A stretch of DNA of 35,470 bases from Chiloscyllium plagiosum. Its lineage: Eukaryota. The notes beneath the pieces were generated by a model, which was not told the origin of the DNA, made no database searches, and was given only the letters and a program-made list of their open reading frames with translations. Below are positions 1,427 to 35,470 of the stretch, piece by piece. The translations under genes were made by a program, and so were the position numbers. The DNA lies in assembly GCF_004010195.1 (NCBI RefSeq), contig NC_057754.1, positions 2,440,994-2,476,463 of the forward strand. The letters run 5' to 3'. Positions within the stretch are counted from its first letter, which is position 1. Each line of letters begins with the position of its first letter.

Positions 1427-2164
1427 AATCATGCTTTTTTTTTGAAAGGGGTAAGTGGGCGTGGAGGGGGAATACCAACAGGAAAAGCTTCATATATATA
1501 AAACCTTCAAGCTAAACAGTTCCTGCTGAAAGCTCTTTAGCAGATAAATGGTGGGTGTTACAACAGAAAACCATTCTTGTCTGTCCTCATCAGTTCTCAC
1601 AATCAAAGAAACTGCTGAATAATTTACCATCAAATTATTCCTGTCGGCTCTTTATCAACTAAGCTATATGTCTTCGTTAAATATTGCTTACCCAGGAGGT
1701 ACAGAATGGAAGATTTTGAAATGGCTAATCCCACTGTTAACTTAGCATTAATGAATAAAAATAACCCACATTTCACAGGGACTGGTTGCATTAATAATGG
1801 GACTTTTCTAGGTTACCAAACAACTGAATATAAATTGTATCGTCATGAACAATACCCTTCCCTTCACTCCATTTTCTTTCTTACTTTTCCTTAAGGTACT
1901 GGCTTAGTTTACGGGGACAGTTCTGTCAGCTGACCTTGGTCCTGTCCTCTTATGGAGTCACATTCAGTGACTCTGGATGGCAACCAAGAGCAGTAGTGCC
2001 TCAGTGATTGACCTTTGATCTGTTGCTGAAATGAGCATCAGATGAAGATAAACCAAGTCTGGCTGTGAGAACCACTGGGCGAATAGCTTATATTATCCTA
2101 GGTTTTTTTTCTCTATACCTACCACCTGTCCTGATGGGGAAGTCAACATTAGCAGCAAGTGTCC

Positions 2165-5133
2165 AGCACATGGACCTCGAGCAAGGCCAGCACATGTACT
2201 TCCAGTGGGACCAGCGCACAGACCTCCAGTGGGCCCAGTGCACGGACCTCCAGTGGGCCCAGTGCACGGACCTCCAGTGGGCCCAGTGCACGGATCTCCA
2301 GTGGGCCCACCACACGGACCTCCAGTGGGCCCACCACACGGATCTCCAGTGGGCCCATTCCATAGACATTGAGCGAGCCCAGCGCACGGATCTCCAGTGG
2401 GCCCAGTGCACGGACGTCGAGCGAGCCCAGTGCACGGACCTCCAGTGGGCACAGTACACGGATTTCCAGTGGGCCCAGCGCACGGACCTCCAGTGGGCTC
2501 TGCACGGATCTCCATTGGGCTCAGTGCGTGGACCTCCATTGAGACCAGCACACGGACCACCAGTAGGCACAGCGCACGGACCTCCAGTGGGCACAGCGCA
2601 CAGACCTCCAGTAGGCACTGCACACAGACATCCAGTGGGCCCAGCGCACGGATCTCCAGTGGGCCCAGCGCACGGACCTCCAGTGGGCACAGCACACGGA
2701 CCTTCATTGGGCCCATCGCACAGACATCCATTGGGCCCAACGCACGGACCTGCATTGGGCCCAACGCACGGACCTGCATTGGGCCCAGTGCATGGGCCTC
2801 CAGTGCGCCCAGTGCACAGACCTCTATTGGGCCCAGTGCACGGACCTGCATTGGGCCCAATGCATGGACCTCCATTGGGCCCAGCGCACAGACCTGCATT
2901 GGGCCCAGTGCATGGGCCTCGAGTGGGCCCAGCGCACGGACCTCCATTGGGCCCAGCGCAAGGACCTCCAGTGGGCGCAGTGCACGGAACTCCATTGGGA
3001 CCAACACATGGACCTCCAGTGGGCCCAGAGCACAAATCTGCAGTGGGCCCAGCGCAGGGATCTCCAGTGGGCCCAGTGCACGAATCTCCAGTGGGTCCAG
3101 TGCACGGACCTCCAGTGGACCCAGCGCACAGACCTCCAGTGAGCCCAGCGCACGGACCTCCAATAGGCCCAGCGCACAGACCTCCAGTGGGCCCAGCACA
3201 CAGACCTCCAGTGGGCCCAGCGCACGGCCCTCCATTGGGCCCAGCTCACGGATATCCGGTGGGCCCAGCACATGGACACTGAGTGAGCCCAGCGCACAGA
3301 CCTCCAGTGGGCCCAGTGCATGGATATTGAGTGAGCCCAGCGCATTGACCTCCAGTGGGCCCAGCGCACAGACCTCAGTGGACCCAAGTGCAGGGACCTC
3401 CAGTGGGCCCAGCGCAAGGACCTCCAGTTGGCCCAGTGCATGGACCTCCAGTGGGCCCAGTGCATGTACCTCCATTGGGCCCATAGCATGGACCTCCATT
3501 GGGCCCAGCACACGGACCACCAGTGAGCCCAGTGCATGGACCTCCAGTGGGCTAAGTGCACGGACCTCCAGTGGGCCAGTGCATGGACCTCCATTGGGCC
3601 CAGTGCACGGACCTCCATTGGGCCCAGCGCACATACCTCCAGTGGGCCAGCGAACGGACCTCCAGTAGGCCCAGTGCATGGACCTCCAGTGTGCCCTGCA
3701 CACGGAGTTCTATTGGGCCCAGTGCATGGACCTCCAGTGGACCCAGCACATGGACCTCGATTGGGCCCAGCGCACGGACCTCCAGTGGGCCTAGCGCACG
3801 TACTTCCATTGTGCCCAGTGCAGGGACCTCCAATGGGCTCAGTGCACAGACCTCCAGTGGGCCCAGCACATGGACCTCCAGTGGGCCCAGTGCACAGATC
3901 TCCATTGGGCCCAGTGAACGGACCACCAGAGGACCCAAGTGCATGGACCTCCAGTGGGTTAGCGCAAGGACCTCCAGTGGGCCTAGCCCCAGACCACCAG
4001 TGGGCACAGCGTACAGACCTCCAGTGGGCCCAGCGCACAGACCTCCAGTGACCCCAGCGCATGGACCTCCAGTGGGCACAGCGCACGGACCTTCATGGGG
4101 CCCAGCTCACAGACCTGCATTGGGCCCAGTGCATTGGCCACCAGTGGGCCCAGTGCACGGACCTCCAGTGGGCCCAGCGCACAGACATCCAGTGAGCCCA
4201 GTGCACGGACATCAAGCGAGCCTAGTGCATGGACCTCCAGTGGACCCAAGTGCATGGACCTCCAGTGGGCCCAGCACACGGACCATCAGTGGGCACAGTG
4301 CACTGACCTTCAGTGGGCACAGCACACGGACCTCAAGTGGGCACAGCACACAGACCTCCAGTGGACCCAGTGCACGAACCTCCAGTGGGCCCAGCGCACA
4401 GACCTCCAGTGGGCCCAGCGTACGGATCTCCTGTGGACCCAGTGCACGGACCTCCAGTGGACCCAAGTGCATGGACCTCCCGTGGGCCCAGCGCAAGGAC
4501 CTCGAGTGGGCCCAGTGCACGGACCTCCATTGGGACCAACGCATGGACCTCCATTGGGCCCAGCACATGGACCACCAGTGGGCCCAGCGCACAGACCTCC
4601 ATTGGGCCCAGCGCACGGACCTCCAGTGGGCCCAGTGCACAGACCTCCAGTGGACCCAAGTGCATGGACCTCCAGTGGGCCCAGCGCAAGGACCTCCAGT
4701 GGGCCCAGTGCACAGACCTCCAGTGGACCCAAGTGCATGGACCTCCAGTGGGCCCAGCACACGGGCCACCAGTGGGTACAGCGCACGGACCTCCAGTGGG
4801 CACAGTGCACAGACCTCCAGTGGGTCCAGCACATGGACCTCCAGTGGGCCCAGCGCACAGACCTCCAGTGGGTCCAGCGCACAGACCTCCAGTGGGCAAA
4901 CCACACAAACCTCGAGCTGGCCAATTGCGGAGGAGTGCAAGCCCAGCACACAGACCTCAAGCAGGCCCAGGACTTGGACCTGGAGTGAGCCCACTGCATG
5001 GACCTCCAGTGGGCCCAGCACACAGATCTCAAATGGGTCCAGTGCATGGATCTCAAGTGGGCCTTGCGCACGGACATTGAGTGGGCCTCACGTGGAGGAG
5101 AGCGAGCCCAGTGCAGAGGACAGTGAGCCCAGT
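2165..5133. repeat. 24-bp minisatellite, about 120 copies
   Basis: Unit GGGCCCAGCGCACGGACCTCCAGT with CpG-site variants and recurrent 23/25-bp units. It is stop-free in all six frames, which explains the overlapping ORFs. Confidence 0.97.
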
Positions 5134-6160
5134 GTATAAACCTGGTGTGAGACCTCACTTACTATTCTGAGGTGAGCACAGGGCCTGGCATCAGAATTGG
5201 TAGCTGTTACATTGGCAGAGGTGACATTGGCAAGGTAGGCCAAGCAATGGACAATGGCACTTGAGGATCAGCGACTTTGTTGTTGGCTGAGTCCACCACT
5301 GGCAGTGGTGAGCCAGTGACAGAAGGACCTAACAGCAAGAGGCAACTCTGACATTGGTTGGTCCAACACAGACAACAGCAAAGCGGTGAAGGAGGGATGA
5401 TAGTGCAGCCATCATTAAGGATGAGCTGGCTCAGGAACACACATCCACTATCTCAATGCTATATCTTTCTTTACTCCCCCTTCTTCTTAAATTATTCAAA
5501 ATGGTACCGAATCATGGAACCAAACAAATCTTTTCACTGTGTTTTATTGCATTCCTACTGTAAAATACACCTGACAGTTATGACTCTATGACTCTGTATC
5601 TCGGGATCCCATATGGTGTGTGCTGTCTGAGAGCTAAATTTTACCACAAATCAACAAAGTGCCAATTTTGTTGCATTTCATGGCGTGTTTCTCTCCTTGA
5701 TCCCTAACGAATTTTCTCCCGCTATGTTTCCAAAATTGACCTCATTAGCTGTGCATCCAGCAGTACTTTGCTTTGGTCAGGGATTATGTCTGTGTTGCGT
5801 CTCACTGTCTCCAGTCAATTACAAAGCTTAAAGAATATCATTCACGTTTTAAAGGCTGGTTAATGGACAATCAATTCTTATCAGCTGGGAATGATATTTA
5901 AGTGAATCTGATTCCAACCGAAATTGATTGGTGCTCAATCGCATCATCTCTCAAATGTAGTAATTATGTAATGAATGAAAGAAGTCAGCAGGCTGATTAC
6001 TCAGTACAGCCAGACTCAGCTTTTATAAAGTCTGTCAGTCACAGTATCTTTTAAAGAGGGTGTTTCCCCACTGGAATACCTTTTAAAATGAGTGAATTTG
6101 GCAGCACTTGTGAACTGATCGCGTAAGGCCCAGTCTCATGGTAAAATTATGGCCAAGTGG

Positions 6161-7018: not shown

Positions 7019-7099
7019 TAAGGTGAACAATAAAGTGCACACCGATGCATTCTCATTTCCACCTATCCACTACATCTTCTACTCTGACATATCATGTTC

Positions 7100-7285
7100 A
7101 CAACCCACCTCCATCCACTTATTGCATTCCCAGCTACATTCCCCCCAGCCACACCCCCGCCTCCCCCCTCCCATTTATCTCTCAGCCCCCTTGGGCCACC
7201 CTCTCACTCTTGAGGAAGAGATTATGTTCTATACGTCGATTCTCCTGCTCCTTGGATGCTTTTCCAGCACCACACTCTTTGACTA
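7100..7285 (+). mobile_element. Decayed Penelope-like terminal repeat with a mutated hammerhead motif
   Basis: CTTGAGGAAGAGATTATGTTCTATACGTCGATTCTCCTGCTCCTTGGATGC aligns to GAAGAAGGGCTTATGCCCGAAACGTCGATTCTCCTGTTCCCTGGATGC at 9490-9537; a C-rich tract precedes it. Confidence 0.7.
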
Positions 7286-8432: not shown

Positions 8433-9366
8433 AGCTTTATCAATACTCACTGCCTGGCTGAGGATTGACCACTGGGCTGAAAGCAGTGGAAGCTGGGAAC
8501 TGCAGAAATGTGGCCTCCAAGAAAACCAGCACCTTTGAGGGAAAGGAGGCAAAAAAATTGGAGAATTTTTTTTAGAAAGCAATCATCATTAGGAGCTTGA
8601 GAGTCAGAAATAATTTATTTTGAATAAGTCAACTCCTTGTGATTATGTACTGCTGCCACGGTCATTGGGAGGGGGAAGGGGTGTTAGGGATGGAGTAGTG
8701 GGAGTGATCTGGAAAGAGTTAGTGAAGCCAGTAATGAGAAAGAGCTGAATGCCCAGTTGCAATAAGAAGATCAGTAAAACATTCCAGATTAATGACTGTA
8801 TCTGCACAAATGTTTGAGTCCGCTCCCTCGCATTGTCAATGCTGTCGGTTCTGGAGATGACTTTTTTTGCAGGGGAGTTCTGATTCAGCATTTTGCATTT
8901 GATGGGAGCATTTGCTGATCCTGTATTTTGCTTCAGAGGTTGATGTCAAATTGTATTCTGTTGGTAGCTAGTGGGTGTCAGGTTCATCCGTCTTCCACTG
9001 CAGGACACAGTCTCCAGAACCAGGCCTTGCACCTCCAGAGTTCCAGCTCTCTTGAAGTTTTCAATGAGGTATCAGCCGTGGTAACCCTGCCTCACCTCAG
9101 AGTTGAGGGTTCATGACATTGAGCTGACATTAATCCAGGCTAAGGGACAGCCACACTTCCAGGCAGCACAGTAGCTCAGTGGTTAGCACTGCTGTCTCTC
9201 AGTGCCAGGGATGCAGGTTTGATTTCACCCTCTGTGTGGAGGTTGCACGTTCTCCCTGTGTCTGCACAGGTTTCCTTCTACAGTCCACAGATGTGCAGGC
9301 CATACTAAATTGCCCATAGCGTCCAAGGATATGCAGCCTAGGTGGGTTAACCACAGGAGATACAGG

Positions 9367-9577
9367 AGAAAGTGAGGTCTGCAGATGCTGGAGATTAGAG
9401 CTGGAAATGTGTTGCTGGAAAAGCGCAGCAGGTCAGGCAGCATCCAGGGAACAGGAGAATCAACGTTTCGGGCATAAGCCCTTCTTCAGGAAGAAGGGCT
9501 TATGCCCGAAACGTCGATTCTCCTGTTCCCTGGATGCTGCCTGACCTGCTGCGCTTTTCCAGCAACACATTTCCAGC
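9367..9577. mobile_element. Palindromic Penelope-derived short element with 14-bp flanking duplication
   Basis: Arms 9400-9487 and 9490-9577 are 87/88 complementary. ACAGGAGATACAGG occurs at 9353-9366 and 9578-9591. Confidence 0.9.
9458..9492 (-). ncRNA. Minimal hammerhead ribozyme motif (PLE type)
   Basis: Minus strand CUGAAGA-A-GGGC-UUAU-GCCC-GAAA-CG-UU; predicted cut after GUU (9462/9461). Stem I is weak. Confidence 0.6.
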
Positions 9578-9591
9578 ACAGGAGATACAGG

Positions 9592-10213
9592 GTTATGGAC
9601 TAAGCCAGACCACTCAAAACATTCTTAAGCAGGCAGCTCAGACCATAACTTTGCAATTTGTTTTGGTAAGTGTACAGTGAAAGTTACCCAGAGTAAGTTA
9701 GCTAGATTGACTACTAGATTTTAAAACTGACAGAAATGTATTCACAAAGTATCGCAGTGAAACACAAGAACAGAATAAGGTACTCCTACAGAAGTCAAAC
9801 CTATCCAGCTAGACTTAATTATGCTGTTCTGAAGTTACACAACAGTCCCAATAAGCTAACTCCCTTTAAAATCCAGCATAAATGGAACACATGCTCACAG
9901 GTTGAAGCTGAAGGGCAGAAAGAGAGAGAGTTTCCACACAGCTCCCTGTTGAACTTCCAAACAGTTCAAGACTGAAGTAAAACTGCCCAGCTCAGCGAGA
10001 GAGCTGACCACTCCCCTTTCATTATACATGATCACTAAAACATGACCACTTTGGTCTGGAGTCTGTGGCCTCTCACAATCCTTTCCATCTCTGTACCAAA
10101 CCAGACTGATCGGAGCCTGGCCCGGTTTATTGCCCCTCTGAAAAAAATCAAAGACAGAGTCTCCTTGAAGCAAGGAACAGTTTTTAGGAAAAAAAGGGGC
10201 TAGTTTTGTAACA
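9592..10213. mobile_element. Probable solo LTR (about 620 bp)
   Basis: Non-coding block that interrupts the HE1 SINE. It starts (G)GTTATGG and ends TTTTGTAACA, resembling TGTTA...TAACA LTR termini. No clear TSD. Confidence 0.55.
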
Positions 10214-10422
10214 ATGGGGGAATTGTGGGTTTGGCTCTTCAGAGGGTCACTGTGGGCTCGATGGGCTGAATGGCCTGCTTCCACAGTATAGGGATCCTAC
10301 AGCTGTCATCTTTCAAATAAGAAACCTAATATCCTCAGGGAAAGCTGAGAAATAAACTCCCAAGGCTAATTGTGAAAGAAGAGCAGAGCTTTCTCCCCAG
10401 TGAACTGGCCATTATGTAACCC

Positions 10423-10591
10423 AGCTGCTGAAAACTCTCTCCAGGCCAGGCAGCATCTGTGAAGAAAGGAACAGATTTAATGTACAGGCCCAGATTCAGA
10501 GGCTCTGTGAAAAGCCACAGAGCTGAAATGGTGAACTCTGTTTCTCTCTCCAAACCTGCTAAGCATCTCCAGCAGGATGTGCTTTTCATTA
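10423..10591. mobile_element. Decayed palindromic Penelope-derived element
   Basis: TGCTGAAAACTCTC...GGCAGCATCTGTG...AACAGA faces AACTCTGTTTCTCTCTCCA...CTCCAGCA. Flanked by TGGCCATTATGTAACCC and TGGCCAATGATTAACCC (13/17 identical). Confidence 0.7.
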
Positions 10592-11701: not shown

Positions 11702-11795
11702 CCTTTGTCCGGAGGCTCACTGATGATGTTACCGAGTATGGTGGCGAAACGTCTGAAAAGGAACCTTCCAGCTCAGCGAGAAAATCTACATCCAT
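11702..11795 (+). mobile_element. 94-bp Penelope-like terminal fragment with 10-bp flanking duplication
   Basis: AATCTGGAAG occurs at 11692-11701 and 11796-11805. The insert is absent from the 22.2-kb copy of the host SINE. Confidence 0.8.
11717..11756 (+). ncRNA. Minimal type I hammerhead ribozyme motif
   Basis: UCA-CUGAUGA-U-GUUACC-GAGUAU-GGUGGC-GAAA-CG-UC-UGA: intact core, 6-bp stem II (two G-U pairs), 3-bp stem I UCA/UGA, predicted cut after GUC at 11753. Confidence 0.75.
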
Positions 11796-13058: not shown

Positions 13059-13085
13059 CTGTTAAAGACAACAGCATTACAACAG

Positions 13086-13182
13086 AGCTGAAAATGTGTT
13101 GCTGGAAAAGCGCAGCAGGTCAGGCACATTCCAGGGAGCAGGAAAATCGACGTTTCGGGCATGAGCCCTTCTTCAGGAATGG
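13086..13182 (-). mobile_element. 97-bp single-arm Penelope-derived element with hammerhead motif and 14-bp flanking duplication
   Basis: Near-identical to 9399-9490. CAGCATTACAACAG (13072-13085) versus CAACATTACAACAG (13183-13196). Confidence 0.88.
13145..13180 (-). ncRNA. Minimal hammerhead ribozyme motif (PLE type)
   Basis: AUUC-CUGAAGA-A-GGGC-UCAU-GCCC-GAAA-CG-UC-GAUU; predicted cut after GUC (13149/13148). Confidence 0.65.
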
Positions 13183-13344
13183 CAACATTACAACAGTACA
13201 GCTTCAACACATCCAACATGTTCTATAAACCGTAGGCATTAACCTATTGTCTGGGAGAGCAACTCCTTGCCTCAGAAACTCTGAACATATCAGTAACGTA
13301 AGGCATTGATCCCGCTGTGCCGAGTTTGGACAGTTTGAAATCCA

Positions 13345-25445: not shown

Positions 25446-25540
25446 AGCAAAAGCAGAAACTGGTGGAAAAGCTCAGCAGGTCTGGCAGCATCTGTGGAGA
25501 GAAAGCAGTGATAACATTTCAGTTCGAATAACTTAGAACT
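25446..25540. mobile_element. Single arm of a Penelope-derived palindromic family
   Basis: GGAAAAGCTCAGCAGGTCTGGCAGCATCTGTGGAGAGAAAGCAG matches 31680-31727. Confidence 0.8.
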
Positions 25541-31665: not shown

Positions 31666-31905
31666 AAACAGAAAGTGCTGGAGAAACTCAGCAGGTCTGG
31701 CAGCATCTGTGGAGAGAGAAACAGAGATAACCTTTTGAGCCCATTGACTCTTCTTCCTCCCTGTTTCTGCAGTTCCTCACCAGCAGTTCTGAAGAAGTCA
31801 TCCCAGAATCGAAACAGAAACTCTGTTTCTCTCTCCACAGACATGTAAGGCGTGCAGAGTTTCTCCAGAACTTCCTATATTAATTTCAGATTTCCAGCAT
31901 TTTTG
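31666..31905. mobile_element. Decayed palindromic Penelope-derived element with hammerhead remnant
   Basis: TCTGTGGAGAGAGAAACAGAG versus CTCTGTTTCTCTCTCCACAGA (21-bp perfect inverted repeat); CTGAAGAAG...CGAAAC at about 31789-31815. Confidence 0.82.
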
Positions 31906-32247
31906 TTTTTATTTGACACTAAAAAGGAGAGTAACAGCAGAGAATCAATATGAAAAGATATCGTTTTAAGCTTACAGTGCTATAGGCCGGCCGTCAGTGT
32001 GCTGGCATCTACATCTGACTGTTACCATCCATCTCACTCCTTCCAAGCCAAAAGATCTTATGTTGCAGGATGGAACTATATTAGTCAGAGCTCACCAAGA
32101 TCATTGGGTGTAATTCAGGTTGCCATGGAGATATAGAATAGAGTTATCTATTCAAGAGAAAGAACATTATTGTGCCTGACTGGTTGAATTCAATGCCTAT
32201 CTCAGTGAGATGGACGGGGGCTAATTTGAGATGAACATTGCATCATA

Positions 32248-32489
32248 TGAGATGGATGTTGGGTTTGAATTTGTAACGGGTGAGCTGATCGTTGTGGGTG
32301 ACCCGTGAGTTGGATGTTGAGTTTGAACTTGTAATGGGTGAGCCGGTAATTGTGGACAACCCGTGAGTTGGATGTTGAGTTTGAATTTGTAATCGGTGAG
32401 CTGGTAGTTGTGGGTGACCTGTGAGTTGGATATTGAGTTTGAATTTGTAATGGGTGAGCAGGTCGTTGTGTTGGACCCGTGAGTTGGAT
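32248..32489. repeat. 58-bp tandem repeat, about 4 copies, followed by a GT-rich degenerate tail to about 32630
   Basis: TGGAT recurs at 32253, 32311, 32369, 32427 and 32485. Confidence 0.92.
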
Positions 32490-32629
32490 CTTGTGGAAGC
32501 TAGCATTCGCACTGGAGTGTGAGTTGGATGTTGAGTTTGATGTTGTGTTGGGCATGTTGGAAGTAACATTGGATGTTGTATTGGATGAGTTAGATATTGC
32601 TTTGATGTAATGTTGGGCATTGCTTTGGA

Positions 32630-34668: not shown

Positions 34669-35032
34669 GTAAACAAATAATTTTTTTCAATATATTTCTT
34701 ACAAATTAATTATTTCTGAACATCTCTTCATTTCCCTGTTGCTCATAACATTTTCTGGTCTATAAATCAAGGATGTATGACTGGCCAGGGTAACCATGTA
34801 ACTGTCGGAACCAATGTTTCAATTTCCAGTTAGGGCTGGGCAGTTCGAGAGAAAGCCCACTTGCTCAAGAATATTTCTTCATGTTTTTTCTCAGCTTTTT
34901 TTGTGCCAATCACCTTCAATCTGAGTCCGTCATTCCCGGAAGGGTTTCTCCCTCACTGACTTGATCCAATACTCCCTTCTTGATTCTGGATGCCTCAGTT
35001 CAATCTCCCACCAAATATTCCCTGTTCTGAGA

Positions 35033-35470
35033 GAGGGAGCGCCGCACTGTCGGAGGGTCAGCACCAAGGGAACGCCGCACTTTCGGAGGGTCAGCACCAA
35101 GGGAACGCCGCACTGTTGGAGGGTCAGCACCAAGGGAACGCCGCACTGTCGGAGGATCAGCACCAAGGGAACACCGCACTGTCAGAGGGTCAGCACCGAG
35201 AGGGAGCGCCGCACTGTCGGAGGGTCAGTACCGAGGGAGCGCCGCACTGTCGGAGGGCCAGTACCGAGGGAGCGCCGCACTGCCGGAGGGCCAGTACCGA
35301 GGGAGCGCCGCACTGTCGGAGGGTCAGTACCGAGGGAGCGCCGCACTGTCGGAGGGTCAGCACCAAGGGTACGCCTCACTGTCGGAGGGTCAGCACCGAG
35401 GGAGTGCCGCACTGTCGGAGGGTCAGTACCGAGGGAGCGCCGCACTGTCGGAGGGCCAGTACCGAGGGAG
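35033..35470. repeat. 33-bp minisatellite, at least 13 copies, runs off the window end
   Basis: Unit GAGGGAGCGCCGCACTGTCGGAGGGTCAGTACC; an AAGGGAAC/AGCACC variant block lies at about 35062-35180. Confidence 0.96.

Follow-up and report, generated by a model that had tools for sequence, protein, structure and literature searches.

The insert at positions 9353–9591 of the window (the whole stretch of 35,470 nt of Chiloscyllium plagiosum DNA analysed here) is, judging by its sequence, a very short, 5′-truncated Penelope-like element (PLE) stub with two head-to-head copies of its end. This layout has long been known for PLEs, and the locus is a clean further example of it. We estimate, with a probability of about 0.55, that the stub arose in one EN+ PLE insertion in which both nicked strands primed reverse transcription (RT) at two known start sites and the cDNAs joined head to head. 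The features of the locus are as follows.

9162..9366, plus strand: host sequence, the 5′ part of an older repeat that we take to be SINE-like and whose paralogues hold the target motif once (alignment; repeat edge at 9162 from family contigs).
9353..9366, no strand: left copy of the duplication, 14 bp (15 with 9352); its final AGG is also the family 3′ end and the putative priming microhomology (sequence; family read ends).
9367..9399, minus strand: PLE tail, 33 bp (36 with 9364–9366), present in a single arm only; its outer end is the probable first RT start (sequence and family reads; tail as described in PMC8557442 and PMC3846280, RT starts as described in PMC11167929).
9400..9492, minus strand: main arm, the 3′ part of the pseudo-LTR (pLTR), 5′-truncated 3 nt upstream of the hammerhead core (family upstream sequence in loose ends behind 9492).
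9462..9489, minus strand: minimal type-I hammerhead core, with C3 at 9489, stem II at 9481–9470, GAAA at 9469–9466 and the cleavage position after 9462 (sequence, folding, family reads).
9490..9492, no strand: head-to-head junction, with GAA common to both arms as a 3-nt microhomology (sequence, family contigs).
9490..9577, plus strand: second arm, inverted, tail-less and without the first two bases of the core; its outer end lies near the second family 3′ end (sequence).
9578..9591, no strand: right copy of the duplication (sequence).
9592..10213, plus strand: multi-copy repeat nested in the SINE, with LTR-like ends (GTTA...TGTAACA); the SINE resumes at ~10214 (contigs of each of the three DNA runs have loose ends ahead of 9592).

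As the preliminary description had it, 9400–9487 and 9490–9577 form complementary arms about a 2-nt centre (AG, 9488–9489), with 87 of 88 positions paired; the sole mismatch sets 9462 (A) opposite 9515. The perfect 14-bp duplication that it reported was likewise found, with the same ACAGGAGATACAGG at 9353–9366 and 9578–9591, and reaches 15 bp when the C common to 9352 and 9577 is included. Among 1,958 random pairs of 40-bp stretches of the window, the longest word in common was 10, so the duplication lies beyond chance. The unpaired extension at 9367–9399 has the 33 bp originally given and corresponds to the tail of PLEs described in PMC8557442, PMC3846280 and PMC11167929. It comes to 36 bp with the AGG at 9364–9366, a count that follows from the family reads stopping at 9364/9365. 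In total, the insert measures 211 bp, and the window is free of N throughout.

When the insert and one copy of the duplication are removed, the site aligns through to paralogues of the host repeat at ~17000 and ~33950. Since both paralogues hold the motif once, the duplication appears to be younger than the SINE and a true target duplication. The target has a G+C content of 50%. The ~620-bp repeat at 9592–10213 is probably LTR-like, to go by its ends, and the PLE stub sits exactly on its left edge. In the unique flank, position 9100 is variable: two runs of one species lack 5 bases of the window, and the run of the other species has an adjacent 7-base insertion.

The searches of the window revealed no PLE reading frame, parent ORF or host gene: tblastn of five PLE-type proteins gave no match, and a Pfam scan of 120 frames (118 of the 122 listed frames plus two array frames) returned only three weak RT matches elsewhere. 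A tRNA scan of the window gave 0 hits. The two array frames, which had no Pfam match, belong to a long 24-bp tandem array at ~2035–5140 that carries open frames of 400–540 aa on both strands with Ser/Gly/Pro/Thr octapeptides. Further arrays in the window have units of 28 bp (1–1030), 58 bp (32247–32560) and 33 bp (34967–35470).

The minimal hammerhead (min-HHR) of metazoan PLEs, as described in PMC4209133, consists of CUGANGA, an unpaired base before stem II, a G-C first pair and GAAA-CG-UH, with no helix III loop; the core of the stub fits this definition. Read on the minus strand from 9489 it is CUGAAGA-A-GGGC-UUAU-GCCC-GAAA-CG-UU, exactly as first reported, and it is complete apart from a helix I of only 2 bp, as against the ~4–6 bp expected of an active minimal hammerhead. 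H17 is U in this arm and C in the plus arm and the family majority. The plus arm begins GAAGA; that is, it lacks C3-U4 at the symmetry axis and retains GUC, also in agreement with the earlier reading. Because the complete core occurs in a single arm, the earlier phrase 'two opposed hammerhead-bearing termini' was overstated: the termini are indeed opposed, and only one bears the whole core. According to PMC4209133, min-HHR motifs are mostly solo, derive from truncated PLEs, are inactive as monomers and also occur as opposite-strand pairs 100–700 bp apart. The motifs of the stub differ from these in that they abut, one of them lacking C3-U4 and the other having a 2-bp helix I.

In RNA folding calculations, either strand of the palindrome folded into an 88-bp duplex of −187 kcal/mol. 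Forcing the hammerhead fold gave −145 kcal/mol, a cost of ~42 kcal/mol, and the pair probability of stem II was 0.00 in the full RNA as compared with 0.99 in a single arm. These predictions favour the earlier suggestion that the full hairpin would sequester the ribozyme. A second motif on the same strand, with which a dimeric fold could form, is absent; the two motifs sit on opposite strands and a same-strand dimer is thus impossible. Given this lack of a partner and the 2-bp helix I, self-cleavage of the hairpin RNA is predicted to be unlikely, and the palindrome is presumably not a working ribozyme. No hammerhead family was matched in an Rfam search up to E=1. The only match up to that value, mir-680 (RF04233), scored 34.7 bits against a gathering threshold of 104 and was rejected as a generic hairpin match.

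The wider family was characterized using three DNA runs (X1, X4 and X9, from two species) and one RNA run (X21), whose contigs or reads were placed on 9000–10000 at 90% likeness. This yielded 82,543, 52,374 and 64,016 contigs from the three DNA runs and 1,942 reads from the RNA run. Depth over the element was several orders above that over the unique flank, with tail-to-flank ratios of ~140,000 (X4), ~194,000 (X9) and 1.5 million (X1, flank depth 3.7). The hammerhead-stub family is very abundant; we claim only this, because the ratios of X1, X4 and X9 disagree and summed contig depth is no copy number. Exact family patterns matched 0 stretches in metagenome contigs and 0 in viral contigs.

The family sequences also delimit the arms and bear on their origin. 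RNA reads of family copies stop at 9364/9365, which indicates that the AGG closing the left duplication is also the family 3′ end and that the priming site matches it over 3 nt. Behind 9492, loose ends carry on as family upstream sequence; the main arm therefore extends to 9492, and the GAA at 9490–9492 is common to both arms. The pile of loose ends at 9490–9493 is itself partly produced by the reference ending there. The same minority letters occur in both arms at the mirrored positions 9404/9573, 9447/9530 and 9451/9526, indicating that both arms came from one source. The family majority at 9462 matches the plus arm; the single mismatch between the arms is thus best read as a CpG-type change that the minus arm acquired later. 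With one CpG change among 102 paired positions, the insert is recent with respect to the host SINE, and the label 'young' given to it in the preliminary description holds in this relative sense only. Shark substitution rates are slow, and an age of some millions of years is therefore still allowed.

The three DNA runs yielded 438 different head-to-head joints, with many breakpoint pairs. Among 15 of these joints, three combine only 24–38 nt of the tailed end with an opposed arm beginning at the edge of the hammerhead, and in five the asymmetry is the other way round. A junction 3 nt shorter than the joint at 9490 recurs in 27, 16 and 16 contigs, and some junctions are common to the runs of two species. 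Family contigs are too short to reveal the outer ends of the joints. Because repeats flank the locus on both sides, no contig of X1, X4 or X9 spans it, and neither a filled nor an empty allele was seen in these runs.

BLAST identified four family arms in the window: the two arms of the stub (the main one, with the tail, and the inverted one), a solo arm at 13084–13181 and an older copy at ~7090–7285. All three of the tail-less arms end at the equivalent of ~9397–9401, within ~5 nt of one another, and two of those ends (13084 and 7208) belong to copies without an inverted partner. The solo arm at 13084–13181 (minus strand), the nearest relative in the window, is 92–93% identical and has a complete hammerhead core. 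It is flanked by its own 11-bp duplication (13076–13086 and ~13186–13196), 2 bases of which are common with the element end. The older, decayed copy at ~7090–7285 (plus strand) is also tail-less and runs ~110 nt further upstream via a C-rich stretch. A second hammerhead-bearing family is represented by a degraded head-to-head stub at ~31666–31843, with the long/short arm asymmetry of the main locus (score 47 versus a shuffle maximum of 30), by a weak candidate at 10416–10570 (31 versus 28) and by a decayed solo stub at 25451–25520. At 11720–11760 (plus strand) there is a further hammerhead-like core, CTGATGA...CGAAACGTC, which represents a third type and has a longer stem II.

The PLE origin first suggested for the insert is supported by the minimal hammerhead, the tail, the inverted arm and the duplication, and the inverted terminal copy suggested with it takes the form of an inverted, 5′-truncated arm placed head to head with the main arm. 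PLE inserts described in PMC3846280 have an inverted pLTR, an optional 31-bp tail and 8–10-bp duplications, and the palindromes at their junctions are read there as self-priming on an antisense template. An inverted 5′-truncated copy at the 5′ end and a 30–40-bp tail are given as typical of PLEs in PMC8557442, which calls the mechanism of the inverted repeat undefined. As far as these accounts and that of D. virilis Penelope (PMC2377424) go, EN+ PLE inserts (Pen2a_Av in PMC3846280; the scheme in PMC8557442) resemble the stub in their 5′-truncated main copy with an adjacent inverted, 5′-truncated copy, in the 30–40-bp tail on one arm, in a variable duplication around the unit and in the junction palindrome. 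The stub differs from them in having neither a reading frame nor a direct pLTR tandem, and in a duplication of 14–15 bp as opposed to 8–10 bp in the rotifer. A direct pLTR from a partial tandem is absent from the insert; such a tandem is usual for full-length inserts, not for stubs. As the insert is only 211 bp, its arms touch and form an almost perfect hairpin.

Closer parallels are offered by Poseidon of Anolis carolinensis (PAc), as reported in PMC11167929. In that system two RT starts bound the tail, at 111–118 nt from the start of stem II; the tail end of the stub lies at 115–118 nt. Two 3′ ends one tail-length apart and a hammerhead at the front of the copied stretch are further likenesses. 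The purified Anolis PLE protein is described as nicking and extending both strands, a dimer is predicted, and hammerhead cleavage is dispensable and protein-assisted (PMC11167929). PAc differs from the stub in preferring AT-rich ATT targets, whereas the target here is 50% G+C; a parent protein of the stub's family was not found in the window, and the account of PAc consulted is silent on head-to-head products. By title or abstract, none of the Penelope literature retrieved with chondrichthyan terms deals with these stubs. Non-LTR retrozymes were considered and rejected: as described in 10.64898/2026.07.22.740005 they are tandem head-to-tail units with at least two complete hammerheads, and the stub is a single head-to-head unit with one complete core.

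A generalised pattern of the core matched at least 120 metagenome loci, 40 of them with short flanks only and some of them duplicates or bacterial chance matches. Among the matches listed, 92 distinct motifs showed covariation at pairs left free by the pattern, with helix I pair 2 formed in 82 of 92 (shuffle maximum 56) and stem II pair 4 in 69 of 92 (shuffle maximum 49); these motifs are related, so that the counts are not independent and kinship inflates the covariation. The same core adjoins RT and/or GIY-YIG frames in six metagenome contigs (41 frames of at least 250 aa scanned, among the matches listed), all belonging to families other than that of the stub at 9353–9591. L051 and L015, which come from other animals, have both domains, at scores above the Pfam cut-offs in L051 and slightly under them in L015; L002, L012, L035, L057 and further stretches of the L051–L053 contig have one or the other. 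In L015:260-3406, L051:1493-6138 and L012:825-7384 the PLE-type RT (GIY-YIG) frames are apparently intact or in tandem, in host DNA within metagenome assemblies, and the minimal hammerhead stands at or ahead of the frame start.

An adjacent inverted arm was found in 6 of 124 (5 distinct) of the metagenome matches listed. At the distinct inverted loci listed, duplications of 14 bp (L037/L064) and 12 bp (L082) were detected, and none of at least 9 bp in the other three. The insertion at L037:3983-4151, which is the same in L064, is an animal PLE-type stub of an unrelated family and adjoins an animal-type GPCR frame. Its arms meet head to head at the core in almost the same way as those of the stub at 9353–9591, and its duplication is 14 bp long. 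Its long arm is without the core start, and its short arm is without 70-odd nt of the long arm and keeps the loop, the reverse of the arrangement at 9353–9591. Since each arm has sequence that the other misses, a fold-back cannot have copied either arm from its partner.

From the anatomy, ends, microhomologies and common source of the arms, all of which are observed, we reconstructed a possible order of steps. Only the last ~95–130 nt of the PLE RNA would have been copied, in one insertion. The PLE protein would cut the two strands with a stagger of 14 nt; AGG, the 3′ end of the plus strand, which matches the RNA end, would prime a cDNA from the outer RT start at 9364–9367, and the minus-strand 3′ end would prime a second cDNA from an inner start ~33 nt further in (the mirror of 9400). 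Both cDNAs would run to the upstream edge of the hammerhead, where their 3′ ends could meet via GAA/TTC and each template the other's second strand; repair would then leave the duplication. The junction hints at a separate filling-in on either side of the DNA cut. A known analogue is L1 twin priming, which gives 5′ inversions: both target strands prime, and an inverted junction with microhomology and a duplication result. An L1 inversion is made of two parts copied from separate stretches of one RNA and ends in poly(A), whereas the stub has the same 88 nt copied twice and no poly(A).

Priming from both ends accounts for the coincidence of the outer end of the inverted arm with the ends of solo copies. 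It also explains how the arms of L037 can each hold sequence that the other misses, with the short arm keeping the loop, and how joints with a tail-only short arm arise. Several points count against it. No PLE reading frame is tied to the family by tblastn of the five PLE-type proteins or by Pfam in the window; the short arm of L037 stops 34 nt after the core, with no obvious second start site; the G+C content of the target departs from the AT-rich ATT preference reported for the Anolis protein (PMC11167929); and the adjacent inverted arm is confined to the few metagenome matches noted above. In addition, taken by itself, this locus would have the same 2-nt centre and identical arms if the first cDNA had folded back and been copied.

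That fold-back is the strongest of the rivals, although we consider it unlikely overall. It shares the PLE origin and derives the mirror arm from self-priming: the 3′ end of the first cDNA (or of an antisense RNA) would fold back on TTC/GAA and be copied to near the tail boundary. A 2-nt centre with three pairable bases suits such a snap-back, the arms are near-identical, the recurrence of the junction 3 nt shorter is in keeping with it, and self-priming is how PMC3846280 reads the palindromes at inverted PLE junctions. Against it, the calculations do not favour a fold-back at 9492, the end of the cDNA: the terminal hairpin, at +2.2 kcal/mol, is unstable and is in competition with stem II. Self-priming also leaves unexplained why the copy should halt where solo copies end, and neither L037 nor the tail-only joints can come from copying one arm off the other.

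The preliminary description had called the insert a non-autonomous PLE derivative. As a truncated, non-coding insertion product it is one; no sign that the palindrome spreads as a unit was found, and the joints differ widely. It is improbable that the palindrome is a small, MITE-like derivative whose transcripts PLE proteins insert whole at new sites. The clean duplication around the whole unit, the recurrence of some junctions (9490 minus 3 nt) with a high summed depth and the occurrence of some in runs of two species would suit this account. The 438 different joints do not, nor does the fact that the closest copy in the window is a solo arm flanked by an 11-bp duplication of its own. Moreover, a duplex of 88 bp and −187 kcal/mol conceals stem II and is predicted to be a poor RT template. 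We infer that the palindrome is a by-product of insertion and not a mobile unit.

It is quite improbable that two separate events were involved, either a solo stub followed by an inverted second copy at its 5′ end or a homogenisation of the arms by gene conversion in hairpin repair. PLEs are reported to insert into or beside their own copies (PMC6765202), and solo arms are common; nevertheless, the two arms lie within one duplication with no further duplication between them, and minority variants are common to the arms. An assembly or sequencing artefact, or a DNA-transposon MITE, is scarcely credible: no contig spans the locus and inverted PLE structures are said to trouble assemblies (PMC8557442), yet the duplication motif is single in the SINE paralogues, the mismatch between the arms is of CpG type, and head-to-head joints occur in raw-data contigs of three independent DNA runs and so are no invention of assembly, while the contrast already drawn with a MITE is borne out by terminal repeats asymmetric by the 33-bp tail, by duplications of 11, 12 and 14 bp instead of a fixed short TSD, and by solo arms with their own duplication.

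Returning to two-ended priming, we tentatively extend it, at slightly under even odds, to head-to-head PLE stubs in general. These may be the in vivo footprint of two-ended TPRT, with a dimeric protein, two RNA copies, two starts that bound the tail, cDNAs that stop at the front of the hammerhead, and mutual second-strand priming. No statement of the two-ended model was found in the literature searched, a scope that leaves aside several key PLE papers (2002–2006) and supplements.

The RNA run was also inspected for transcripts of the locus. The 1,942 X21 reads fell on repeats, only 62 of them at ≥99% likeness, and none fell on the unique flank at 9000–9135 (~2 in 100 of the run examined), which indicates that they derive from other copies of the family. 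These family-derived reads have a ~2:1 strand bias over 9340–9580. Places with A>G plus T>C changes numbered 55, versus 31–34 in the DNA runs. We do not count this excess as A-to-I editing; it is not assignable to the locus at 9353–9591 and is accompanied by somewhat raised counts of other change types. For a hairpin of this kind, ADAR editing, Dicer processing and cruciform extrusion are plausible on general grounds.

By itself, a single locus matters little; it is of use as one data point within a very large natural set. The stub junctions and end positions make two-ended priming and fold-back distinguishable by computation alone. Tabulating arm lengths, loop ownership and microhomology over a set of such ends of the order of 100,000 would settle the origin of the inverted pLTR as against the published antisense self-priming. 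If transcribed, the RNA of the palindrome would be an 88-bp duplex, and if many near-perfect hairpins of this kind form part of host transcripts, this lineage would have in them a large source of dsRNA.
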